Shown: one piece after another, positions 3,992 to 35,860 of the stretch
Layout of the letters: each line of letters opens with the position of its first letter
Numbering within the stretch: position 1 is the first letter of the stretch
Source of the DNA: an uncultured Candidatus Peribacteria bacterium
GTDB lineage: Bacteria; Patescibacteriota; Gracilibacteria; BD1-5; UBA2023
DNA length: 35,931 nucleotides
Direction of reading: 5' to 3'
Assembly: GCA_964598195.1 (NCBI GenBank)
Contig: CAZRBF010000001.1
Location: 5,696 to 41,626, forward strand
Notes under the pieces: model-generated
Database searches by the model: none
What the model was told of the DNA's origin: nothing
The model's input: the letters and a program-made list of their open reading frames with translations, nothing else
Position numbers and translations under genes: made by a program

Positions 3992-5200
3992 ATGAGTCCT
4001 CTCCATAGACCAAAAACACTACGTGAATCTGTTTCAGCAGTTATGAAGGCTACCTGAGTAAAGAAACTTACAAAATTTATGTGAGATAAGGTAGAAAGGC
4101 TTGTAGGTAGTATATCTCCAAAATCCGTGGCTCCAGTATTACAACCTGTGCTCGAGGTGGAACAAAGTGACCAAGAAATTCTTCAACCAGTTAATGTATT
4201 GCCAGAAGTGTCTCCCACTAATAAATCGGCAGAAGTTATACCGTTTAAACCCATTAAGCCGATCTTGGCGATCGACAATACGCTCAGAACCATTGATACC
4301 TCTGAAACTTTTATGGAAACAGTATTACAAAATGCAGCGTACGTTATTGCAGACAAACTCCGTACCGACGATACCATCAAAGATCTTGTAGAGAGTGTTC
4401 GTAAAGATTTTGTAAATATGATCCGAGAAATAGAATGAAGAACGAGTCTTTCAGAAAAAAAGAAACTTACACTCATCGGACCAAAGTGACTCAATATCAC
4501 TCTGTGTATTTCAAATGAGGCTATCGGTGAATATAAATACATAATAGGAAACCTGAAAAAAGATTGTAATGTAGTCTATGGTGTCAATGGGGTGAGCATA
4601 GATAAAGCAGATCCAGGCTGTTTTTGATACTCTTTTGTAGAAGATGGGATTCAGATGATCTTTGAACTCGATCCAGGAAAAAGCAGTTTTGATACACATG
4701 GAGAAAGTGCAAAAAAATATTTTAATTTATTGGAAGGAGGTTTTCCTTTGTTGTGATGAGCATTTCTTCAGTGAATACGAGAAATCAACAATGAGATCAG
4801 TGCGCTCTATACAGACTCTGATACGGGGTTACTGAATCACTTGGCCTACAAGAAAACAAAAGAAGCCTTAGAAAAAGAGTTAAAAATATCGTGAAAACAT
4901 TTTACTGAACATGCGATTGAAATACTACCAAACAATCTTGTCATGCACCTACTCGGGGACTATGGAAGAGAGGCTCTTATGAGAATGATAGCTGATACAG
5001 TAAAGCCCCTCGACCCAGATATGACTTTTGCATATAAACACGTGGACAGGAATATGGCGGTTATATTTATAGACAGAACCAACTCACCAGAAATTATAAA
5101 AAAGCTTTCCGAGATTACCGCGGCGATGTCTCGAAGGATTGAAGTAAAAAATGCTCAGGATCTGATAGTAAACGTCGAGCTTATAACCAAAAAACACTAA
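3992..5200 (+). CDS. hypothetical protein (402 aa) with a possible degenerate GGDEF-like C-terminal domain
   Basis: ATG 3992 and ORF fragments 4127..4438 and 4943..5200 are one frame joined by nine TGA codons, with no TAA/TAG in between; TAA at 5198-5200. The C-terminal region DSDTGLLNHLAYKK...LLGDYGREALMRMIADTVK...AVIFID loosely follows the GGDEF-domain pattern but lacks GG(D/E)EF. Confidence 0.7.
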
Positions 5201-19474: not shown

Positions 19475-19512
19475 TTATTTATTTTTAAATCATAACAATT
19501 ACAACTATGTGA

Positions 19513-20535
19513 ATGTTCAATAATCTTTTCAGTGATCAATTTATCGATGTTATTCGTTGGGATAATCCAGAACCAGATTTTCTTATAAAAAAATGGAGTC
19601 AGAACCTTGACGAGATAAAAAACAGCTCGAGTCTCGTAGTAGATCCGGGTCTTTCTGCTATCTTTATTCATAATGGTAAGGTTGAGGCGATTCAAACAGA
19701 GTCATGAAAATGGACTCTTGACACTTCTAATGTCCCATTTTTATCCAGTCTCAAAAACTTTATGAGTGGGATGGAGACTCACGATAAGGCACAAGTGTAT
19801 TTTATTAAAACCAACGAGATTACGAACCAAAAGTGGGGAACTCCGAACTGTATTACATATATCGACCCGATTTATAATTTCCCAGTGGAACTCCGTGCTT
19901 TTGGTAATTTTACATTTCGTATCACAGATATAGAAAACTTCTGGGTCAATTATGTGGCGAATAGAGAGAGCGTTTCTACAGATACCATTCGTATGGTAAT
20001 CGTCGATCGTCTCGTTGGAACCATCGCTTCTATACTCGCAAAGAAATCTATTGCATATACTGAGATTGCAAAATATGGACCAGAGATTGCAAAGGATCTC
20101 ATGGAAGCCACAAAGGAAGAATTTGCAAAATTTGGTCTTTCTCTCACAGATTTCCGTATTGAAAATACAAATTTCACCGAAAAAACTCAGGGATTCATCG
20201 ATAAAGTAACTTCTAAGAGTGCCGACGTTGCAGCCATTAATACGACTGCAAATATTAATCAAAGTGCCATGCATAATTACTCAAATATCGAGAAGCTCAA
20301 TATCGCCTGAAAGGCTGCCGAAAATGGTGGTGCAATGGGTGATATGATGGGTGCTGGTATGGGCATGGCAATGGGTGCTTCTATGGCTGGAAGTTTATCT
20401 GGTAAAATCGATACCCAGGAGGTTTCAGTATCGCCAGCTTCTAAACTGGAAAAAATAAAAGAACTCTTGGATAAGTGACTCATTTCCCAGGAGGATTATG
20501 AGAAGAAAAAATCAGAAGTTCTCTCTCAAATATAA
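19513..20535 (+). CDS. SPFH/Band-7 family protein of the YdjI type with C-terminal SHOCT domain
   Basis: Fragments 19513..19707 and 19762..20310 plus the tail are one frame joined by TGA codons. The N-terminus MFNNLFSDQFIDVIRWDNPEPDFLIKKW...EIKNSSSLVVDPGLSAIFIHNGKV is YdjI-like. A Gly/Met-rich linker leads to KLEKIKELLDK(G)LISQEDYEKKKSEVL, a SHOCT motif. TAA at 20533-20535. Alternative ATG at 19507. Confidence 0.8.
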
Positions 20536-20557
20536 TTCCTTTAAATCCTTATCCGCA

Positions 20558-22054
20558 ATGCTTCTTTTTATCGTCGCCCTCATAGCTATATCGGGTATTC
20601 TTTATGAACTTCTTATTTGAACTTTGAGTTCGTACTTGATAGGAGATAGCGTGGCACAATTCTCTCTTACGATTGGGTTGTTTATGACAGGCATGGGTAT
20701 CTGAGCTTATCTTTCTCGATATCTTCAAAAAAAGGCCTTAAAATCATTTTTTTGGATAGAGATTATCCTCGCGATTCTCGGAGGAAGTTCCATTATTCTC
20801 TTGAAGCTTGGTTATACGTATCTTTTTTCTGTAGAACTGAGTTTTTATTCTCTTTATACCATACTTACCCTTCTTATAGGTATCCTCATAGGTATAGAAA
20901 TACCTCTTGTGATGCATATATATAAGATTCTTGGTACCTCAAGAGAAGAGGATGTCTCAAATATTTTTACATTTGATTATATAGGAGCTCTCCTTGCGAG
21001 CCTCATATTTCCTTTTGTACTTCTTCCATATTTGTGAGTATACAATACTGGGGTATTTGTGTGATGTTTAAATCTCATTGCTGCTTGATTATATTTGATA
21101 GCAATACGAAGGGTACTACAAAAAAATGCTTTTATGTGGTATCTACTTACTTGTTTATTGGCTGGAATATATTTGCTAAGTTTGCTTTTCATGGGAGAAC
21201 GACTCGAATCATTCTTTATGAGATCATATTACAAGGAGCCAATTCTGTTTCATGAACAGTCTCCTTATCAGAGTATAGTGCTCACAAAGCGATGAGAAGA
21301 TGTACGACTTTTCCTCAATGGAAACCTCCAGTTTCTCTCTCTCGATGAAGGAAGGTATCATGAGTCACTCATAGATTGGCCGATGAAACTTCTCGCTACA
21401 CAACAAAATATCAATGTTCTTGTCCTTTGAGGTGGGGATGGTTTAGCAGCAAGAAATCTGCTTGCTTATAAAAATATCCAATCTATCACGTTGGTTGATC
21501 TTGATCCACGGATGGTAGAACTTGCCAAGAGTCAAAAAGAACTCCTTATACTCAATAAGTCAAGCTTCCTCGATCCCCGTGTTAAGATAGTCGTATGAGA
21601 TGCCTTTGCATATGTAAAAAAGGAATCAGCTAATCAATTCGATCTCATCGTAGCAGATTTTCCTGATCCACGGGATGTTGGAACTGCTAAGCTCTATTCT
21701 CAGGAGTTTTATATAATGACGAAGTCTTTGCTTCGAGATTCATGAATTTTTGTCACTCAAGCAAGCAATGCCTTTTTCTCGAAAGAAAGTTTTTGGAGTG
21801 TTGAGAAAACGATGAAAGTTGTATTTCAAAACACAAGGCCGTATCATAGATACATTCCAAGTTTCGGAGATTGGGGATTTATTCTTGCTTCAAAGAACGT
21901 AGATAGACTCGTAGATGTAAATTTCTGCAATAGTTCCAGGTGTGACTATTTTGATACAGACTATATGCCAACTGAAATTATTGAGGAAAATACCCTAGAA
22001 AAACCAGTCATTATCCAGTACTATATGCGTGGATACAAACGTTTTAATTTATAA
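20558..22054 (+). CDS. speE: membrane-anchored polyamine aminopropyltransferase (spermidine-synthase domain fused to N-terminal multi-TM domain)
   Basis: ATG 20558 and fragments 20801..21037, 21095..21295 and 21812..22054 are one frame joined by about nine TGA codons. N-terminal TM region LSGILYELLI(G)TLSSYLIGDS. Catalytic region SPYQSIVL...LFLNGNLQF...VLVL(G)GGDGLAARN...ITLVDLDP...IVADFPDP. Confidence 0.85.
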
Positions 22055-22065
22055 CCCTCTTTTTC

Positions 22066-22650
22066 ATGACCTCATCTTTTCAATGTCCTTCGTGTGGGAG
22101 TCCCATAGAATTTGATGCAAAATATGCTCGAATAGTGAGTTGTGTATACTGCCATACTGTTTTAGAATTTGGGACAGGGGAACTTACTATCGTCTGACAA
22201 CAGAGCGAGTTTATTGATTTTCCGAGTATTTTCATAGTAGGTTCAACTACTCCATATAAAGGCAAAAATATCTTTGTTCATGGACTTATTCGATATGAGT
22301 ATGATGGAGGTTTTTTTGATGTATTTTTCGCAGAAATTGATGGAAAAAAGCTTTTTATCCAAGAGGATGATGGCTCGATAACTTTTTTTCAGGAATCAGA
22401 TTGGGTGGATGCTCCATTTGAATTGGACCTTTCTATGGTGGGAAAATCACTCGTAATAGATGGAAGTAATTACTTTATCCAAGAAACCTGAGTTCAAAAA
22501 GTAGTAAATATCAAGGGGAGTATTGATTCGCTTTTTGTACCAAATAAAGAATATGAATACTATGATGGCACTACAAATGGGAATCAGATTTTTATTAGGA
22601 GAAATCCTGAAACGAAACAGATTCGAGTAGGAAAAGAAATCAGTATTTAG
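22066..22650 (+). CDS. Zn-ribbon plus DUF4178-domain protein (second copy)
   Basis: ATG 22066 gives MTSSFQCPSCGSPIEFDAKYARIVSCVYCHTVL, then KGKNIFVHGLIRYEYDGGFFDVFFAEIDGKKLFIQEDDG. There are two internal TGA codons and TAG at 22648-22650. Invisible in the standard-code track. Confidence 0.7.
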
Positions 22651-23636: not shown

Positions 23637-24746
23637 ATGGCAGATACACAAGTAAAAACACAGGATCCAGCAACTCAGGCTGCGGTTACAGAAATGAAGA
23701 TTATGACTCTCGGTGCTCTTGAACGAGCCGAAGTAGAGGCAACTTTTGCTGAGGCAAAAGACTTTCGATCCATCGGAGAAAAGATTACTGCTCCACTCGA
23801 TAGTATTATCTCCGAAACTGCGAAGATCATCGACAAGGATCCGATAATGAATGTAAATGAGGAACTCCAAACCATGAATACCTCCGTTCAGGCAGTGTAC
23901 AAGGAGATTATCGACAATGACGGAACTATTATGAAGATTGCGAAATCTATTCCACTCATCAGCGGGCTCGCAAAAACACTCGATGCTAAGTGGGACGAGG
24001 CAAGTTTCAATGTAAAATCACTCGAAGGGAAAATCGGAGTTATTTTCTCCGGATTTGACCAAGCATATACGAGTCTGAATACCTCGATCGATATGCAAAA
24101 ATCCTTTCTCGATGGAATCGAAGCCAATATCGGCAAGGTCGTTGCTTACAAGGAATTTCTCGCTGAAAAGATTCTGGAGTTCAAATCAAAAGGAGAATTG
24201 GCAACCAGCGAAGACGAGAAGATGAAATATGATATGTTCCTCCGAAATGTGGAATTCTTTCAGTCCAACCTCGTAGTCCTCATCGGAAACCTCGAGCTTG
24301 CTCGAAAACGTCTTCTGATTCGACTTGATAGTGCCGCAAAGCTCTCTCTTGCGATGAATTCGTCACGACCCATATTCAAAACTCTCCTCTCTACTGCCCT
24401 CATTGAAACCTCTTCACAGAAAGCTCTCGAGGCAAGTATTAAGGCCATAGGAGTTATGGGTGAAACCATCGACAAGATGTCCTCAGGACTCACTGACAAG
24501 GCGATCGAGTCCAGTCGTCGAGCCGAAGAGATGTCTTCCAAGCCGGTTCTCTCGACGTCCGTATTCATCGAAAATGTCACCAAGCTCAAGAATCACTTCG
24601 AGGAAATCGATGCATACCGAGCTCAGGTGAAAATCGAAGCTGACAAAGAGAAAACTCTTTTTGCTGAAGCTAAGACCAAACTTGACAACATCAAGACTAT
24701 CTCCAAGAAAAATCAGGAAGAACTTGCAGAACAACTTTCACAGTAA
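23637..24746 (+). CDS. TelA-family (toxic anion resistance / YaaN-YceH-like) protein
   Basis: 369-aa all-helical ORF. Its length and helix pattern fit TelA (for example LRNVEFFQSNLVVLIGNLELARKRLLIRLDSAAKL..., IETSSQKALEASIKAIGVMGETIDKMSSGLTDKAIESSRRAEE, VLSTSVFIENVTKLKNHFEEIDAYRAQ). TAA stop. No TGA codons. Confidence 0.65.
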   Translation: MADTQVKTQDPATQAAVTEMKIMTLGALERAEVEATFAEAKDFRSIGEKITAPLDSIISETAKIIDKDPIMNVNEELQTMNTSVQAVYKEIIDNDGTIMKIAKSIPLISGLAKTLDAKWDEASFNVKSLEGKIGVIFSGFDQAYTSLNTSIDMQKSFLDGIEANIGKVVAYKEFLAEKILEFKSKGELATSEDEKMKYDMFLRNVEFFQSNLVVLIGNLELARKRLLIRLDSAAKLSLAMNSSRPIFKTLLSTALIETSSQKALEASIKAIGVMGETIDKMSSGLTDKAIESSRRAEEMSSKPVLSTSVFIENVTKLKNHFEEIDAYRAQVKIEADKEKTLFAEAKTKLDNIKTISKKNQEELAEQLSQ

Positions 24747-24757
24747 TTGGAATATAA

Positions 24758-24790
24758 ATCTCTCCCGAGTTCTCGGGAGAGATTTTTTTT
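24758..24790 (+). terminator. strong rho-independent terminator after the TelA-family gene
   Basis: atctctcccgag / ctcgggagagat is a 12-nt inverted repeat with 2 nt between the arms, followed by T8. Confidence 0.85.
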
Positions 24791-24811: not shown

Positions 24812-25555
24812 ATGGAAGAACTATCTAATACTGCTCTACAAGAAATAAAAGACTTACAACAAAAAGATGTTTTTCAATTTGTTTTGGTTCACTTTTGAAT
24901 ATTGCTATTATCTTTATTTGTAATATTTTTTGTATCGTCTATTATCTCTGGAATATTGAATTTAAGTAGGGATTTCTTTGGATTGAGTTTAGTGTGATAT
25001 TCTATCGCAGCTATTATCTATGCAGTATGGATTTTTTATACTATTTTTTTCAGATATGATCGTATGATCAATAGATTTAATCAAGAAATTCAAATTATTA
25101 AAAATAAAAAAGATTTTATAGAAGAACAATTTATGGAACTTACATGATATATAGAGAAGGATATTAATGAGATGGGTATTGATAATTGATTGGTAATGAA
25201 AATAAAAATGAGCATTGATACTATTCGTAACAATATCACAGACTATGTAGTATCTGTAAAAAAACTTGGAATTAGCAAAGAATTCTCTTGATTGATAGTT
25301 AACTCTAAAAAATTTCTTGATTTACAAGTAAAGTTTACCACTTCTATTTTACAGGAGATGAATTTTTGACAACAAAATTTAATACAACTTATCCAATCCT
25401 GGATCTCCCATCATGCAACAGAACTTGCAGAACTCGAAAAACAGATAGCATCACAGGAGCTTGCTACTGAAAATACCGGATGAAAAGTAGCTCTTGAGAT
25501 TTCAAGAATCTCCTTGCAGGAGCATTTGAAGGAGTTAGAGAAGGTGAGGGTTTAA
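24812..25555 (+). CDS. array paralog A: 2-TM membrane protein with conserved C-terminal helical module (XpaC-like architecture, unverified)
   Basis: ATG 24812 opens a 247-aa frame through eight TGA codons to TAA 25553-25555. TMs: VLVHF(G)ILLLSLFVIFFVSSII and SLV(G)YSIAAIIYAVWIFYTIFF. C-terminus: QSWISHHATELAELEKQIASQELATENTG(G)KVALEISRISLQEHLKELEKVRV. Confidence 0.7.
25394..25555 (+). repeat. 162-nt conserved 3' coding module, copy in paralog A
   Basis: caatcctggatctcccatcatgcaacagaacttgcagaactcgaaaaacag...ggagcatttgaaggagttagagaaggtgagggtttaa aligns colinearly with 27006..27167 and 27837..27998. Confidence 0.85.
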
Positions 25556-25571
25556 AAATAACTTATGTGTT

Positions 25572-26342
25572 ATGGTATGATGAATAAATGATAGAACTAA
25601 TCCTCAGATAGAGTGATTTATTCTGAAATTATCAGATCGAAGTATATCGTATCAGGTAATAAAATATAGAATCTTCGCTCTTGCTCTATGTAGTTTTTTG
25701 TATCTTGGAGGATTTATATCTGGGCTCTTTTGATCTAGTATTTTGACATTACCTTTCTGGATTATATGAATCTATTTTTTGCTCTTTTTACCACCAAAAA
25801 ATGAAATTGAAGGTATTATAAACTATACCGTATATCAAATGAGAGTTATCGGAGAACAAAAAATGGCTCTTCAAGATTCCTTTGATCACTTTCTTGAATT
25901 AGGAAAGAACGATTTTAGGGAAACATGAATTAATCCTATACTGGTAACAGATACTGCCAATGAAATTAATGGCATTTCTACAAAAGTACAAACATTCCAA
26001 AAACTTCTCACTGATTTTGATAAGGATATAAGGATATCTGGCAAAGAATGATCCGGTGTACCTCCGATGATGGTTCGTTTTATTCGTTGGCACTTTGCAG
26101 ATATAATTAAAGATTTTATCGTTTCTCAGCAAGAATGGATTAAAGGCGCTGTTCCTATTTTCTCTAAATGAATACAAGCCTTTCTTACAAACCATGCCAA
26201 TGAATTAAAAGAACTTGATACATCTATTTTGAAGCAGGCAGAATTGACGGAGAGCCTCTCAGGACAATGAGTATTAGATCTTCAGAAAGTTCGACTCGAG
26301 AAGCATATCGAGAATCTTGATAAGGTACGAGCAAGATTATAA
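25572..26342 (+). CDS. array paralog B (divergent member)
   Basis: ATG 25572 opens a 256-aa frame through about ten TGA codons (translated codon by codon) to TAA 26340-26342. There are two TMs. C-terminus: QAFLTNHANELKELDTSILKQAELTESLSGQ(G)VLDLQKVRLEKHIENLDKVRARL. Confidence 0.65.
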
Positions 26343-26363
26343 TCTTATTTTTAAAATTTGAAT

Positions 26364-27167
26364 ATGAAACAACACTACATGGAACCAGACATAGAAAAAT
26401 ACGTCACCACTCGCCAAAATCATCTGGAATATAAACGGTTTCAAGGGCTATTTCTTATTGACATTATAGGATATGAAGCATACGCCAATATGAAATCTTC
26501 TCTTTTTTCGGAGTGGTTATTTTCTAAAATTACCATACATTTATTCTCTATTTTTCATATTTTTTGATGATTTTTGCCTATTTTATATTGATGTTATCGT
26601 GTGTATTCTGAACAATCTCTTGAGTCCCTTACATTTCTGTTATTCTTCGTAGCCTTTTGAATAGGATTAATTCATACAGGATATAAATCTTTCCGCAGAA
26701 TAGCCGTATATAAGAAAACTCTCCGTTATCTTGAATCGAAAGATACTATCGTGAGCGAAAGAGAAAAGCTCGAAACAAGCATAGCAAACGATGTAAATAA
26801 TGGTTGAATAGATGTGGCTATTTTGTGGGATATCAAAAAATGCATAGTCTCTATCCTTGAATGATATCGGATTATATCAGTCTCGCATGAATATATATTG
26901 AACCATAAGTGATATTTTGGAAGAATATCCCGAGAATGACAAGAGGTTATCAATAAAGAGTTTCAATGGATTGTCGCTTACTCACAGGAATTTACTCTCC
27001 TTGTTCAATCCTGGATCTCCCATCATGCAACAGAACTTGCAGAACTGGAAAAGCAGATGGAATGACAGGAGCTTTCGACAGAGAATACTGGTTGAAAAGC
27101 AGCACTCGAGATTTCGAGAATATCACTACAGGAGCATTTGAGGGAGTTGGAGAAGGTGAAGGTTTAA
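26364..27167 (+). CDS. array paralog C
   Basis: ATG 26364 (ORF 26358..26567 is its first fragment). The frame was checked codon by codon through twelve TGA codons to TAA 27165-27167. C-terminus: QSWISHHATELAELEKQME(G)QELSTENTG(G)KAALEISRISLQEHLRELEKVKV. Confidence 0.7.
27006..27167 (+). repeat. 162-nt conserved 3' coding module, copy in paralog C
   Basis: Same length and register as the copies in A and D. Similarity between C and D extends about 50 nt further upstream (from about 26958 and 27789). Confidence 0.85.
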
Positions 27168-27206
27168 TTTGGGGTGAGATTTTTTAAAAAGTAATAACCA
27201 TAAGAT

Positions 27207-27998
27207 ATGGATGCTAATAATCTTGAGGATAAATATACTGAATTTCAGACATTATTACTCATTGACCTTATGTGAAATACGACCTATGAGAAGATGAAAT
27301 CATCTCAATTAACAACATTAACATTTTATAAATTTACTATAATTCCGTTAATTCAAATAATCATATGATTATTTATATGTCTCGCTATCATGTGAGAATA
27401 TTTTGATGTAATATTTGGACACTCTGATTTAGTAAAAGATGGATGATTTTCTACGAGCCTAGTTCTCTTTGTTCTATTTTTTTCTTTGGCTTTTTATTGA
27501 TATATAAAGCTCCGTAAGATATTTTTATATAAAAATATTTTTTACTATCTTGACAGCAGAGATTCTATCATTTCTGAAAATAAAAATTTTGAAATTCTTA
27601 TCAAAGAAGATTTTGATAAACACTGAATAGACGCGGACATTATCCTGCGGATTAAAAAATCTATCTCATCTATTCTAAAAGGTTATGCTTTGATTTCAAA
27701 ATACCACAAAGGCACCCAAGAACAGTTATTGAAAATAGGTATGCTTATGCGTATATTTAATGGATGATTAATGAAGATGATTGATAGTGAACTTCAATGG
27801 ATTGTTGACTATTCGCAAGAATTTACTCATTTTGTCCAATCCTGGATCTCTCATCATGCAACCGAGCTCGCAGAACTCGAAAAACAGATAGCATCACAGG
27901 AGCTTTCAACGGAGAATATTTGAGGAAAAGCTGCTCTTGAGATTTCGAGAATGTCACTTCAGGAGCATTTGAAGGAGTTGGAGAAGGTGAGGGTTTAA
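27207..27998 (+). CDS. array paralog D
   Basis: ATG 27207 opens a 263-aa frame through eight TGA codons to TAA 27996-27998. It is homologous to C along its whole length (LLIDLM(G)NTTYEKMKSS versus LFLIDIIGYEAYANMKSS). C-terminus: QSWISHHATELAELEKQIASQELSTENI(G)GKAALEISRMSLQEHLKELEKVRV. Confidence 0.7.
27837..27998 (+). repeat. 162-nt conserved 3' coding module, copy in paralog D
   Basis: Same length and register as the copies in A and C. By eye it is roughly 85-90 percent identical at nucleotide level. Confidence 0.85.
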
Positions 27999-28062: not shown

Positions 28063-29340
28063 ATGCCCATCTCCATCCCACCAGAGCTTTCCTCAAGAAA
28101 TTCGCTCATTCGAGAGTCCGTTGAATCCAGGGGATTCTATCTCTATAACTGGATATCGTTTGAAGAGCTTCGCAAGACGGTTGCGAGGGACTATCTATGG
28201 CTCCTCTCCAGGCTTCTTGTGCCCTTTGGAATAGTCGTAATCCTTGGAGGATTGTACGATTTTTATGTCCTTTGAGACACGAGATTTATCTGGACGATTA
28301 TCTGACTCACTGGAGTGTATACTCTCATATTTTTGGTGATCATCTTTCGCATGATTGCACGATCGTGGACCTTTCTTCATATTTCAAATATAGTATTTAC
28401 CGATACCCATCTTTGAATCGGTGGTCAAATAGTTCCTTATAAGGAGTATGATACAATGAGCGAACAGATTCGTGAATGGGGTGACGAATTTGAAGAAGAA
28501 TTCATGATGCCATCTAAGATAGACGAAAAAATTGGGCAATTCAAGGCCCGGGTATTTACGTGGGGTGCGAGCAAAGAGGAGAAGAAGACAAAAAAAGAAA
28601 CTTCTATGTTAGACAGCTGTGGGAGCTTTGATGGATGTGGAAAGTCAAATAGCTGTGGGGGTCCTGATTGCTGAGACGTTGGAGATGGAGCAATCGTTTT
28701 TGTCGTGATTGTTTTCTGACTCATTGCTGCATACTGGATTTCCATACGAGTATTCTACGCTCTCGGGTGGATACTTTCTTTCCTCATCGGGTGGATATTT
28801 GTTGGTATCATGAAGATGATCGTGATAGTACAATGACGCGAAGAGATGAAAATCCAAGGACTTTTCGAGAAGCTTGAAATACTCGCAAGTGAACTTATTT
28901 CGTCGAAAAATATGATTGTAAAAAGTCTTAAAAGTGCTAATGAATGAGCATGGGACGAGTGAACCAAATGAGTGGTGGATAAGTTTAGTATGACTATCGG
29001 GAAAGCATGGACAGGGATCAATCTTGTGAAGAAACTAAAATCTACACTTGAAAGTTCGAAATACACGAGTATATTTAATTATGAGACATTCGATCTTTGG
29101 ACCAAGGGTCAGATTCTTGAACCCATTAATGAGATGATAGAACTACAGAGTACTTCGCTCAGAAAACTCGAGGATTCTATTTTTACTCTCAAAAATCAGA
29201 TACAAGAGACTCAGAATCCAGCTTTTGTAATTCTACTTGAAACGCAACTCAAACGATTGGAGATCCAACGAAAGCCACTCGAATCTATGCAAGATCAGTG
29301 GAAGGGGGTAGGGGCGAAGATTATTGTTGGAAAGTTTTAA
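28063..29340 (+). CDS. array paralog E: ~4-TM membrane protein (425 aa), long form of the same family, with Cys/Gly-rich insert
   Basis: Fragments 28063..28275, 28456..28674 and 28972..29340 are one frame joined by TGA codons. N-terminal motif PPELSSRNSLIRESVESRGFYLYNWISFEELRK. C-terminal module IFNYETFDLWTKGQILEPINEMIEL...LLETQLKRLEIQRKPLE. TAA stop. Confidence 0.7.
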
Positions 29341-29571: not shown

Positions 29572-30843
29572 CTACTTAATTATCTCTCCTGTATATACTG
29601 CTTCAAACGCACTGCCAGGAACCTTCTTCAGTTGGTTGAGATTATCGTCGTTCCACCTCGTGTCGGATGCTCCGGTTATGAACCAATTGGATCCATTGTC
29701 AGCGACGATGAGTCCGTATTTTTTGAGTGCTTCGAGAATAGCCCGAGCTTCCCCTGTGTACTTTGAAGTGTCAAAATCGGCCTTCAGTCGAAGTTTGAGA
29801 CCCATAGGAAGAGCATTCGGATCTTTTATACTTGAGGCATAGTGTGTGGCTGGGTGGATAAACCCGCGTTGTGTTTTGGAGAATGTGACACGTAAGGCAT
29901 GACGAATCTCATTCTTACTCGCTTCATCGTATCGAGCAAGTCCTGGGAATATAGGCAGTCAGGCTGCATCGGCGGAAGTCCAGTAATCTGGGCGCAGAGC
30001 ATTGGAGCGCAGATCGTATTTTGCAGCAGAACTCGCGTCCCAACCAGTCTGAGTTTTGTGTGCATTATAGAGCTCATACAACATACATGCATTCTGATCC
30101 ACGACGATAACATGTCGATCACCATCGCTCGAGTTTCCTCACTCTACAGGGGCATTATCAGGAATAGGATATGGTCCCGGATCACTTTCGTCACCGTAGT
30201 CAGTAAAATTAATGGGCACTTTTTTCTGATCTTTTCCGACGGTTACAAAGGGTATTCCGTATTCTCCATTTCCTCAGAAATCAGCATGCAGAAATTGGTT
30301 TCCAGAAAGATTTTTGATATATGTCATGTAATTTGCCGAGTTTGGATGAACCTTGAGTCCCGAGATATCCTGATTCCAGCTATTATCCGCTGGAAAAATA
30401 GAGCAACTTCCGACTGCTGGATGAGTTGGAGTTGGTGCGGGAGGCATTGCTGGTGTTGGAGTTGGTTGTGTTGGTACTGGAGGTACTGGAACTGGTACTG
30501 GAGTTGGTTGCACTGGAGGAACTACAGCCCCCGTTCTCCCGAGCTCACTCCCGATAAGATCATCCATTTCTCCGATAGACGGATCCTTGAGCCTCTCGAT
30601 AACCGCATCAATTATCGCGAGAATTGTAGCATTTCATGTATATTTTTTCTTGAGCTTCGTGAGCGCTCGTATGTACTTTTCACGGTACGACTCTCACTTT
30701 ACATGGATCGCTCATTCTATTTTAGTTGTTATGCGCTCAACAACAGTACTTGTGTTTACTTCTTGCGCCGAGATACTTCAGGCGAGTGAGAGTAAGACAC
30801 ACCCAGCCACCAGATACTTTATATACGTTCGAGAAAGGATCAT
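29572..30843 (-). CDS. secreted conserved hypothetical protein with Pro/Thr-rich linker
   Basis: Fragments 29572..29805(-) and 30274..30567(-), the stretch between them and the upstream part to ATG 30841-30843 are one frame (translated by hand) joined by TGA codons. Signal peptide YLVAGCVLLSLAGSISAQ. Linker PPVQPTPVPVPVPPVPTQPTPTPAMPPAPTPT. Globular domain with DESDPGPYPIP, DGDRHVIVVD, WTSADAA(G)LPIFPGLARYDE, PMGLKLRLKADFD, ADNGSNWFITG. TAG stop. Confidence 0.7.
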
Positions 30844-32357: not shown

Positions 32358-32439
32358 AAATAATTGGATATTTGAGGGGATTTGTGGTAGGATGAGGGAA
32401 GATTAAATAGTATTCGAAATACTTTATAAAAATAACATC
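32358..32439 (+). promoter_or_regulatory. conserved upstream element, copy 1 (43-nt G-box repeat plus -10-like box) in front of paralog F
   Basis: aaataattggatatttgaggggatttgtggtaggatgagggaa (32358-32400) is identical to 34412-34454. It is followed by aaatactttataaaaataacatc and ATG 32440. Confidence 0.55.
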
Positions 32440-33723
32440 ATGTCAAAAGCCAGAAATATCTCCAGGCAACAAGCCTCAAAATCCATCATACTTCCATCAG
32501 AAATCCAAAAAGTTGTGGATGAAAGGGGGTTTTATTTGTATGAGTGGGTGAGTTTTGTTGATTTTTTTCGCTCAATAGGAAAATATTTTGTAGTTGCGGT
32601 TGAAAAAAATTGGGGAGTATTTCTTTTTTTCACATTTCTTATAATACCACTTACTTTTTACTCTTGGTTATTTTTAAAAAATAATCTTATTTTTCAATAT
32701 ATATTGGCGATAGTTCTCTTGGGAATTATTTTATCTATCTTAAAATCTTCTCTGTTATTCTCTCTTAAATATGCCAAAAGTATTCAAGTTATTTTTTTAA
32801 AAAATTCAATTATTTTTAATAAAAAATTGTCCGATTATAAATCTCCAAATAAAGAAATAGTCGTATTATGAAGTATCTTTTTTAAACCTCTTTTAGAAGT
32901 TCAGACACAAGATATTGATAACTATCAGTCTTTTATGTGGACATTGGAGGATAAAAGTAAATGAGATATCGGTGCAGCAGGGCTTATATATATGGTGATA
33001 ATAATATTTTGAGTAACACTTTCACATCGTTGGACTGCTGGTTCTTTTATGGATTTATATCTTCCGCTTACTATCTTTGTTGTCCCTATTTGTGCAGTAA
33101 TGATTTATGTATTTTTTTTAAAACAATTTGAGTACTTGATGCAAATATTCATTTATATATTTTTTTTCATACCATTAGCTATATTCAGTTTCCTTATTAA
33201 TTTTCTTTTCTTTTCCATAATTAAGCTCATCACCTTCTTTACTCACTACACCGAAAACAGCATCAACTCACTATTTTCCTCCATCGAAAAATCTTCCAAT
33301 ATCCTCCAGTGTCAGAAGCAGAAACTTCTTGATTCATTGGAAAATGGAACTGGATTTTATGATTTTCAGAAAGTTTTTTCGCTTCTTTCTCGCTCTGCAG
33401 ACTCGAGCATAATCAATTCTCATAAACTTGAGAAACTACTCAAGGACTCTAAATTCCATGATATCTTTGATTTCGAAATCTACCACTCGTGGATTCGTAA
33501 GCAAGTCCGTGAACCATTGGAACAGATCTTGAATCTTATGGAAGATAACCTTCAGATTCTGAAAGAAACAAAAGAGAAACTCGTAAATCAGATTACTGAA
33601 ACGATTGATCAGAATCTTCGTGCTCCACTCGAGCTTCAGCTGGTAAGAATGGATGAGCAAATAGGGGGATTTGAGAGAAATAGACCTATTCTGAGAGAAT
33701 ATTTCGAGAAATTGAAAAATTAA
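32440..33723 (+). CDS. array paralog F: multi-TM membrane protein (427 aa), long form
   Basis: Fragments 32440..32871 and 33049..33723 share a frame and are joined by three TGA codons. N-terminal motif PSEIQKVVDERGFYLYEWVSFVDFFRS. C-terminal module IFDFEIYHSWIRKQVREPLEQILNL...RAPLELQLVRMDEQIGGFE. TAA stop. Confidence 0.7.
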
Positions 33724-34411: not shown

Positions 34412-34492
34412 AAATAATTGGATATTTGAGGGGATTTGTGGTAGGATGAGGGAAAAATGAATACCATACAAAATACTTTGTAAAATAATTTT
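34412..34492 (+). promoter_or_regulatory. conserved upstream element, copy 2 (43-nt G-box repeat plus extended -10) in front of paralog G
   Basis: 34412-34454 is identical to 32358-32400. TGTAAAAT (extended -10) at 34479-34486 ends 7 nt before ATG 34493. The same region is also upstream of the divergent mntA. Confidence 0.55.
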
Positions 34493-35860
34493 ATGTCTTA
34501 TTCTCTTCAGAATCTCCCATTGGAACTTCAACAGACTCTTAATTCACGGGGTTTTTGCTTTTATAGCTGGATCAGCTATAAAGAATTTTGGCTTTCTATT
34601 CAGAGATTTTTTCTCTCAAAAATGAAGACAATTGTTCGAATTCACTTACTTGTTGGTGTTATTCTTCTCTTTGGATTTTTTATCCTGCCGTTCTTGTCTC
34701 TACAAACAAATGATGAAAAATACTGATTTTTTGTGAGTCAGATATTTCCGATGGCTGTGATGTCTATATATATACTTTTCATCGTGTACATCGCTCTATT
34801 GCATACAAGAAAATATTTAGAGTCCGCCTATATCGTATTTACCAAAGAGTATATTATAGGATTTGGATGAACAACTTCTTATGCAGACTCGTCTCTAATT
34901 TACTGAAAAATTAGGGAATTATGAAAATTTTTCGAGGAACCACTTTTTGGAGAATCGAGACTTCATATTGATAAAAAAGAGCTCAAAAGTCTCTTGTATG
35001 ATGATTTGCGAAGATATTTCTTTTTTCGATCATGGCATAATGTAGATATGAATTGGGAACGAATATTTTCTTACTTTGTTATCTGGGCCACAGTATTCGG
35101 TGTATTTATACCATTTAATTCACCATTCAAAGCATTTATCTGGTCTATCTTTGGGCTCATTATGATCGGCATATTTGCTCACTCTCAAAAAGAGAGACGA
35201 GAATATCAGAAAAATATGGATAAAGATTATCTCCTTCTCATGAATATTATTGGAATTTTTGCTATGGTATTTTCTATTATTGTTTATATGATAGGAAGTA
35301 TCATAGTCTTTGCGATCAGTGGATTTTTTCTTCTTTTTGCTCAAATCATACTCCGTATTACGAAAGCTCGTGAGATGTATATACATCAAGCTTTTCGATC
35401 TATTGAGGATGCTTCATGGAGATTACGAAATTTACAAGATGAAGCTTGTGAATATTTATTCCAAGTATCCAAGAGTCATTTTTCTGATCGAGCTCTCTCA
35501 AAGATTGAAAAAACTCTGAAAAGTATATCCAGAGAAGCCGATATTTGTGTATGCAAAAGTACCCAATTGAGAAAATATTTTCATTCACAAGGGTATGATA
35601 ATATTTTCGATTTTCACACCTACGATCGTTGGCTTCGTACAGAAATGCTTCCACCAATCCAGGATATTTGCTTGATTTTGCAAAAGCAATATAATCTTCT
35701 CGAAACAAGCATATTATCCATTTCTGGGCAGATCACTGAAAGCTTGGATACTTTTCGACCAGCTCTGCAGTTGCAAGAACAGCGTCTTATGAAACAGAAA
35801 ACATTACTTTGAGAAAATATTGTAATTTTGGAGGGGTATATGAGGGAACTGGAGGGATAA
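34493..35860 (+). CDS. array paralog G: multi-TM membrane protein (455 aa), long form
   Basis: Fragments 34493..34726 and 34994..35812 share a frame and are joined by TGA codons. The standard-code end TGA 35810-35812 is read through to TAA 35858-35860. N-terminal motif PLELQQTLNSRGFCFYSWISYKEFWLS. C-terminal module IFDFHTYDRWLRTEMLPPIQDICL...RPALQLQEQRLMKQ. Confidence 0.7.

Follow-up and report, generated by a model that had tools for sequence, protein, structure and literature searches.

Why do three neighbouring genes resemble one another so closely at their 3' ends when the remainder of each gene has diverged so much further? This question is raised by a tandem array of four paralogs, here called A, B, C and D, in a 35,931-nucleotide (nt) stretch of contig CAZRBF010000001.1 (hereafter the window, meaning the whole stretch analysed). 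The source is a Candidatus Gracilibacteria bacterium that reads UGA as glycine (genetic code 25). Genes A, C and D end in a shared module of 162 nt. The likeness of the three copies very probably reflects strong purifying selection combined with occasional short-tract gene conversion within a fast-evolving tandem array.

The genes themselves only become visible under the appropriate genetic code. The listing of open reading frames (ORFs) of the window contained no table-11 ORF over the three 162-nt segments, because their common frame has in-frame TGA codons. Table-11 listings likewise split up the majority of the window's genes. When TGA was treated as a sense codon, the stop-to-stop ORF content of the window more than doubled and four tandem genes emerged, each of them a complete ORF with an ATG start and a stop codon. 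Codons 29 and 30 of the module read GGA-TGA in A, GGT-TGA in C, TGA-GGA in D and GGT-GGA in other genomes; TGA and GGN codons are thus swapped for one another, which points to glycine as the meaning of UGA. Gracilibacteria are a lineage known for code 25. In public protein calls, members of the A-D family carry tryptophan (W) where TGA encodes glycine, or appear as fragments (table 11), which is a practical warning that the standard code hides genes of this kind.

The segments 25394-25555, 27006-27167 and 27837-27998 form a gapless alignment of 162 columns, in frame and through the TAA stop codon, and 131 of these columns are invariant. An earlier reading of the DNA made from its letters alone (the sequence-only reading) had described such a gapless, same-register alignment through the stop codon, and it is borne out for all three segments; the identity of 85-90% then estimated by eye compares with computed values of 86.2% (A-C), 87.4% (A-D) and 86.2% (C-D). 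The first ~40 nt and the last ~45 nt had also been called almost invariant, synonymous positions included. Differences at the ends are indeed few: over the 5' 41 nt A equals C exactly and D deviates at four third-codon positions, and over the 3' 45 nt one to three sites differ among the copies. The description was nevertheless overstated, as ~13% of the module sites differ, mostly synonymously. No further copies of the module were found in the window.

The 5' boundary of the similarity is sharp. Outside the module, A is ~40% identical to C or D, which is the random level; in 30-nt bins the identity runs at 27-43% 5' of position 25394 and then steps up to 70-97%, so that the 5' part of A is, as had been proposed, unalignable to C and D. 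The similarity between C and D extends ~50 nt 5' of the module start, and these two genes are 50-65% identical over their full length. The longest exact shared runs measure 41 nt (A-C), 36 nt (A-D) and 17 nt (C-D). Paralog B was thought to have the homologous protein module with low nucleotide identity, and the computed values agree: its module is 49-53% identical to those of A, C and D at the nucleotide level, and its longest exact run in common with D is 11 nt, the chance level.

Nonsynonymous (dN) and synonymous (dS) divergence were estimated by Nei-Gojobori counting under code 25. In all three pairs of module copies, dN was 0.04-0.07, the proportion of synonymous differences (pS) 0.42-0.44 and dS 0.61-0.67, compared to a dN of 0.55-1.07 and a saturated pS of 0.69-0.72 in the bodies, i.e., the parts of the genes 5' of the module. 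Codons for the same amino acid were identical at 69-75% of module positions versus 40-49% in the bodies (Fisher test, p 0.007-0.02); within the module, the corresponding value for B against the other copies was 37-47%. Synonymous divergence is therefore not uniform along the genes, a uniformity that would have spoken against any special history of the module, but falls locally within it, the effect being moderate. It should be noted that the excess synonymous similarity shared by the module copies is measured on only ~34 synonymous sites.

To place these values in context, the family was followed into other genomes. A protein search with D returned only ten clusters, all ending in QSWISHHATELAELEKQIxSQELxTENxGGKxALExSRISLQEHLKELEKVRV. 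The contigs of the search matches, together with contigs containing the gene for a 369-amino-acid (369-aa) protein that lies upstream of the array, provided a comparison set of 19 module-bearing genes at 11 loci. A pattern scan of metagenome contigs yielded a single locus, itself a member of this set. The module is present in at least ten related genomes (including proteins P0002-P0010). The bodies of the 19 genes are 17-65% identical and comprise at least eight unrelated types, one of which (L3b/L12a) is without a predicted transmembrane (TM) segment. A variable, mostly membrane N-terminal part joined to one constant C-terminal domain, the architecture suggested for the window, is thus seen across at least ten genomes. 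The array lies 3' of the 369-aa gene in every contig that reaches far enough, and its content differs strongly between genomes. The 369-aa gene was used as a yardstick: between these genomes its product shows 91-97% amino acid identity, with pS 0.46-0.72 and dN 0.02-0.08, which means that a strongly constrained protein here corresponds to ~80-86% DNA identity and near-saturated silent sites.

The module and the bodies also differ in composition. In all 19 family genes examined, the GC content of third codon positions (GC3) steps from ~0.25 in the bodies to ~0.45 in the module. Values like that of the module are usual for the window's conserved single-copy genes, the 369-aa gene (0.47) among them, and the bodies are far AT-richer than the genome average (38% GC). 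GC-biased gene conversion was considered as a source of this step, and is not needed, since conserved single-copy genes have the same GC3. The contrast is that of a constrained module set against very fast-evolving, AT-rich bodies. Its main cause is purifying selection on the protein module, because dN/dS is ~0.1 and the module is kept clade-wide on many unrelated bodies. The sequence-only reading had missed this dominant cause.

Purifying selection might even be the entire explanation, if the copies were ancient paralogs whose protein sequence and codon choice are both constrained, with no DNA exchange between them. Besides the low dN/dS and the clade-wide conservation of the module, two observations agree with this: the GC3 of the module is like that of the core 369-aa gene, so that codon choice may be constrained, and the identity of same-amino-acid codons between genomes, 0.58 for the 369-aa gene, is already 0.64 for the module. 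Selection alone, however, leaves unexplained that the modules of A and C are nearer to their paralogs than to their body orthologs at synonymous sites. At the amino acid level, the A body shares 64% identity with that of L16a, and for the C body the values are 65% (L4a) and 53% (L2a), versus 20-39% identity to their own paralogs; it follows that the genes were duplicated before these genomes separated. The module nucleotide identity to the same body orthologs is 77% (A-L16a), 79% (C-L4a) and 74% (C-L2a), compared to 86-87% among A, C and D. In neighbour-joining analysis of the module, the window (w) copies grouped together with L7a ({wA,wC,wD,L7a}, bootstrap 79%, or 74% using third positions only), while the pairs expected from the bodies, wA+L16a and wC+L4a, received 0%. 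The module pS to the body orthologs is 0.69, 0.55 and 0.78, which exceeds that among the window paralogs by 0.24 (95% confidence interval 0.07-0.43, bootstrap p=0.002), and the proportion of nonsynonymous differences follows a similar pattern. The module is thus closer to its own paralogs whereas the body follows orthology, as in concerted evolution, and the homogenisation extends to synonymous sites with a moderate effect.

A second discrepancy is provided by an independent assembly of the same locus (L001, GCA_020049755.1), which is 99.9% identical to the window, with 9 mismatches in 8786 nt. Five of these nine single-nucleotide polymorphisms (SNPs) fall within the 486 nt of the modules (binomial p=5e-5; p 0.04-0.005 if they are counted as two to three events). 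Three of them, at positions 27059, 27061 and 27064, lie within 6 nt of C, where ATGGAATGA (Met-Glu-Gly) is replaced in L001 by ATAGCATCA (Ile-Ala-Ser), the exact sequence of A and D. In L001, C-specific bases are kept on either side of the patch, at a distance of 6 nt (left) and 11 nt (right), and these retained flanks rule out a k-mer switch during assembly as its source. The window and all fetched loci contained no other donor for the window allele ATGGAATGA. Read most simply, the patch is a short tract of 6 to ~21 nt that conversion by A or D left in the C gene of the L001 lineage. A patch of three substitutions matching A and D, between strains that are otherwise 99.9% identical, is not accounted for by selection alone.

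The same is true of a pair of orthologs in other genomes, L012 and L3b, in which 14 of 465 body positions are mismatched, compared to 23 of 162 module positions (p=1.6e-6), a 4.7-fold higher divergence in the module. The L012 base equals that of paralog L3a or L3c at 20 of these 23 mismatch sites, and the divergent stretch lies wholly within the module. Excess divergence with paralog-matching alleles is again left unexplained by selection alone, which we consider quite improbable as the complete explanation. Locus L003 contains three tandem genes of a different (B2) type that are 91-92% identical in their last 162 nt and 53-59% identical in the preceding 162 nt; their modules are 78-81% identical to counterparts in other genomes, and the body of L3B4 is nearest to L2B (77%) and not to its own paralogs. 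The B2-type genes of L003 (11718-12437, 13725-14474, 15197-15979 and 10872-11618) form a second subfamily with its own homogenised 3' module, a repeat of the pattern seen in A, C and D. The fourth copy, possibly a pseudogene, carries a frameshift at the end of its module.

Several observations weigh against a combination of selection and conversion. Mosaicism within the module is weakly significant: the mosaic of A, C and D begins with four sites uniting A with C (AC|D), followed by five uniting A with D (AD|C), with run test p values of 0.04 and 0.12, and the pairwise homoplasy index (PHI) test, applied to a short module, gave p=0.002 at w=5 (near-adjacent sites), a significance that was lost at windows of at least 10 sites (p 0.15-0.53). 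There is one clean strain pair, whose alleles are polarised by parsimony. Identity between L012 and L003 in the flanks is only 86%, and the paralogs compared are those of L003, not of L012 itself. At synonymous sites, the A module is almost as close to that of L4a (pS 0.44) as to those of its own paralogs. Finally, the copies are 13% diverged with dS ~0.6, at odds with the sequence-only description of a "nearly constant" module; homogenisation is therefore neither recent nor complete, and conversion would be occasional and of short tract. The proposal that gene conversion or concerted evolution acts on the module is upheld by the tree conflict, the synonymous excess and the conversion-like patch at strain level. 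On this comparative evidence, the action of infrequent, short-tract gene conversion on the module appears well supported.

Such conversion would proceed by non-reciprocal homologous recombination between tandem copies, a mechanism suggested by the comparisons above. Exchange would probably begin where two copies are perfectly identical over a long run (41 nt for A-C, 36 nt for A-D), and the tract would be halted 5' where homology ends and 3' at the stop codon. RecA-dependent recombination requires ~20-30 nt of identity to begin exchange, and the participation of A, C and D with the exclusion of B fits the lengths of their shared runs. The B module is outside the exchange group, having diverged too far to join it. 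Selection would hold the DNA similar enough to recombine and recombination would erase differences, the two processes reinforcing each other. The 162-nt direct repeats, spaced 1612 and 831 nt apart, would probably also permit unequal crossing-over, which could explain the differences in copy number between genomes.

The sequence-only reading had also mentioned a cassette-like organisation. In a programmed system of the pilE/pilS, vlsE or MgPa style, the constant segment would be a handle by which N-terminal cassettes are shuffled into an expression site. The presence of one constant module on many unrelated bodies and the strongly differing array content between genomes would suit such a system. 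The structure of the array does not: A, B, C and D are each full-length, from a start to a stop codon of their own, rather than silent, truncated or promoterless cassettes beside one expression site, and homology is found only 3' of the variable part, not in blocks on both sides of it. With one-sided homology, a double crossover cannot replace the variable segment. Moreover, the body/module junctions of A and C are old, because orthologs elsewhere carry the same junction, and the bodies of L001 and the window differ by single SNPs only. In view of the complete ORFs, the 3'-only homology and the old junctions, a programmed cassette system is extremely improbable, and selection with occasional conversion is preferred.

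Just as improbable is conservation of the 162 nt for a nucleotide-level function, be it that of a structured RNA, of an antisense gene or of a DNA site for regulation. Its attraction lies in the last ~33 nt of the module, CAGGAGCATTTGAAGGAGTTGGAGAAGGTGAGG, which are unusually constant between genomes and GGAG-rich, and in table-11 antisense ORFs that overlap the C and D modules. Against this, the A module has no overlapping antisense ORF of at least 40 aa, the substitutions track the sense frame (dN << dS), and the downstream contexts differ between the copies, so that a shared role in ribosome binding is unlikely. The RNA-level function raised earlier as an alternative found no backing: a search of the module against Rfam gave no matches at E<=1, the folding z-scores of the module against shuffled sequences were -0.23 and -0.52, and the consensus fold of 18 sequences reached -5.2 kcal/mol with a covariation term of -0.32 and 1 of 13 pairs compensatory, i.e., without covariation.

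The 3'-terminal segment CAGGAGCATTTGAAGGAGTTGGAGAAGGTGAGG (window positions 25516-25552; columns 123-155 of alignment A2) has a same-amino-acid codon identity of 0.72 between genomes, compared to 0.61-0.63 in the rest of the module and a baseline of 0.58 in the 369-aa gene. It uses G-ending codons, contrary to the preference of the genome.

Conversion among tandem paralogs is an already well-known mode of bacterial gene-family evolution; what is new here is the protein family and its unusual lineage. A close parallel is the lpl cluster of tandem lipoprotein-like genes in Staphylococcus aureus, where a conserved nucleotide block within every ORF is a recombination site (Tsuru & Kobayashi 2008, PMC2568036). 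Both systems combine tandem paralogs, a variable locus, a conserved block and conflicting phylogenies of ORF parts. However, the lpl block lies in the middle of the ORF, where crossing-over shuffles the variable regions on its 5' and 3' sides, while the block described here is 3'-terminal and only its homogenisation is shown, with no body shuffling seen. In the immunity arrays esaG and tipC of T7SS (type VII secretion systems), recombination between short similar blocks explains copy gain and loss (Garrett et al. 2022, PMC9484751). These arrays, too, line up non-identical paralogs in tandem and contain short stretches that are highly similar. The single-block tsaI, in which little recombination occurs (PMC9484751), calls for caution with a one-block family such as A-D. 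A further difference is that esaG and tipC adjoin polymorphic toxins, whereas the neighbour here is the highly conserved 369-aa protein. No polymorphic toxin or T7SS context was found beside the array, the neighbours being SPFH, spermidine-synthase-like and Zn-ribbon proteins. The locus does not look like a polymorphic-toxin immunity array, as the adjacent gene is conserved (at least 68% identity across the phylum) and not polymorphic.

In the outer-membrane paralogs of Helicobacter pylori, homogenised segments lie at gene ends. Concerted evolution of one gene segment has been described for the bab and hom genes of this species (PMC4552749, PMC2795765), in which, as in the present array, conversion homogenises a structurally conserved segment while the variable segment diverges. 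The H. pylori paralogs are dispersed and not tandem. They also conserve the beta-barrel anchor and vary the adhesin, while here the membrane end is variable and a soluble helical hairpin is constant. The array offers a clean example of domain-restricted concerted evolution in an uncultured candidate-phylum bacterium with an alternative genetic code.

The nature of the module was addressed with structural models. The AlphaFold2 (AF2) model of C, built on a database sequence with Trp at the TGA positions (pLDDT, the predicted local distance difference test score, 71.6), consists of a helical hairpin in the membrane and, after it, long helices that form a bundle. Most paralogs are anchored by such an N-terminal two-helix membrane hairpin. 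In the C model the module comprises the end of helix 190-238, a Gly-Gly turn and helix 242-266, and is thus a C-terminal helix-turn-helix of 53 residues; it is probably cytoplasmic. A Pfam search with A-D and further family members identified no significant family, and a Foldseek search with the C model returned nothing below E=0.96.

Among the hypothetical proteins of Gracilibacteria, the 369-aa protein encoded 5' of the array belongs to the most conserved, with at least 68% identity in >120 Gracilibacteria clusters; a set of 1.8 billion representatives contains only 86 clusters of it at 50% identity. Its AF2 model is all-helical and of low confidence (pLDDT 55); searches found no Pfam domain in it and no sequence match in the PDB. 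Foldseek matches of this model to ClyA, AhlB and NheA were set aside as weak, generic long-helix bundles (E>=0.02). Three relatives (P0130, P0141 and P0163) match TelA (PF05816) with 15.9-20.3 bits (E 3e-4 to 7e-3), below the cut-off of 30, and P0141 aligns collinearly with positions 13-327 of the 332-position profile. No TelA hit was obtained for the window protein or its close homolog P0011, and 12 family members gave no hit to XpaC (PF10112)/Halogen_Hydrol at E up to 10. From these profile matches, the 369-aa protein may be remotely TelA-like.

In Firmicutes, xpaC-telA is a two-gene envelope-stress cluster (PMC6811118). It resembles the present locus in pairing an all-helical soluble protein of ~370-400 aa with a small one composed of two N-terminal TM helices and a helical tail, and genes of membrane-stress type are found in the wider neighbourhood here. 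Unlike the Firmicutes cluster, with one partner gene, the locus has a hypervariable array, and its TelA similarity is sub-threshold while XpaC is without a match. A TelA/XpaC-like envelope-stress pair would be a reasonable analogy.

Most likely, the module would act as a docking or oligomerisation helix hairpin that joins the varied membrane parts to one shared partner, because the array adjoins the 369-aa gene and the two show matching conservation. This partner might be the neighbouring 369-aa protein, or the paralogs with the module might bind one another. Two results count against this part of the interpretation: when residues of the 369-aa protein were examined for covariation with module type, only one weak column emerged, which leaves docking unsupported, and neither the paralogs nor the 369-aa protein has a significant family or fold match. 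The family was previously unannotated (no Pfam or structural match), and its constant association with the 369-aa protein offers an interaction hypothesis. A more far-reaching idea, which we regard as rather unlikely, is a modular system specific to Gracilibacteria, in which diversifying heads would plug into the 369-aa protein via the constant hairpin and conversion would keep them compatible. If this were true, the diversification might reflect host or phage interaction in these episymbiotic bacteria with reduced genomes.

The features of the array and of its 5' border are collected in the Table.

Table. Coordinates in the window of the paralog array, its module copies and the adjacent upstream features.
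Feature	Coordinates	Strand	Remarks
369-aa protein gene	23637..24746	+	conserved, all-helical, no TGA codons; 5' of array
Terminator-like hairpin	24756..24785	+	13-bp stem and T run, between 369-aa gene and A
Paralog A	24812..25555	+	247 aa, code 25; two N-terminal TM helices and helical C-terminal domain; body ortholog L016 4280-5005
Module copy in A	25394..25555	+	53 codons and TAA
Paralog B	25572..26342	+	256 aa; diverged homologous C-terminal module
Paralog C	26364..27167	+	267 aa; body orthologs L004 2546-3346 (65%), L002 1686-2450 (53%)
Module copy in C	27006..27167	+	holds 3-substitution patch sites 27059/27061/27064
Paralog D	27207..27998	+	263 aa; start 27207 backed by N-terminal homology to C
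Module copy in D	27837..27998	+	162-nt alignment

The 5' neighbourhood (19507-22650) is of membrane-stress type and encodes a Band_7_1 (SPFH) protein with SHOCT, a membrane protein of spermidine-synthase-like type and a protein with Zn-ribbon/DUF4178. DUF350 and Tim44-like genes and an AAA ATPase occur in related loci as well, and in L004 and L005 ParE-type toxin genes are located between the 369-aa gene and the array.

A second paralog family, comprising multi-TM proteins of 425-455 aa, is encoded at 28063-29340, 32440-33723 and 34493-35860 of the window and also 3' of the arrays in L003, L005 and L015. Its members share the N-terminal motif SRGFYLYxWISF and have no Pfam match. The resemblance of their C-terminus to the module is weak (hhalign probability 5%, E 0.008). 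An intergenic repeat of 74 nt, AAATAATTGGATATTTGAGGGGATTTGTGGTAGGATGAGGGA...AATACTTTxTAAAA, is found at 32358-32431 and 34412-34485 (89% identity), 5' of the paralogs of 427 aa and 455 aa, and sequence related to this element follows family genes in L007 (after position 1343) and L016 (after position 5005). The 74-nt element may be a conserved promoter or leader. An imperfect 30-nt tandem repeat (30425-30484) lies in the minus-strand gene 29572-30843, which encodes a secreted-looking protein of 423 aa, and specifies a linker rich in Pro, Thr and Val.

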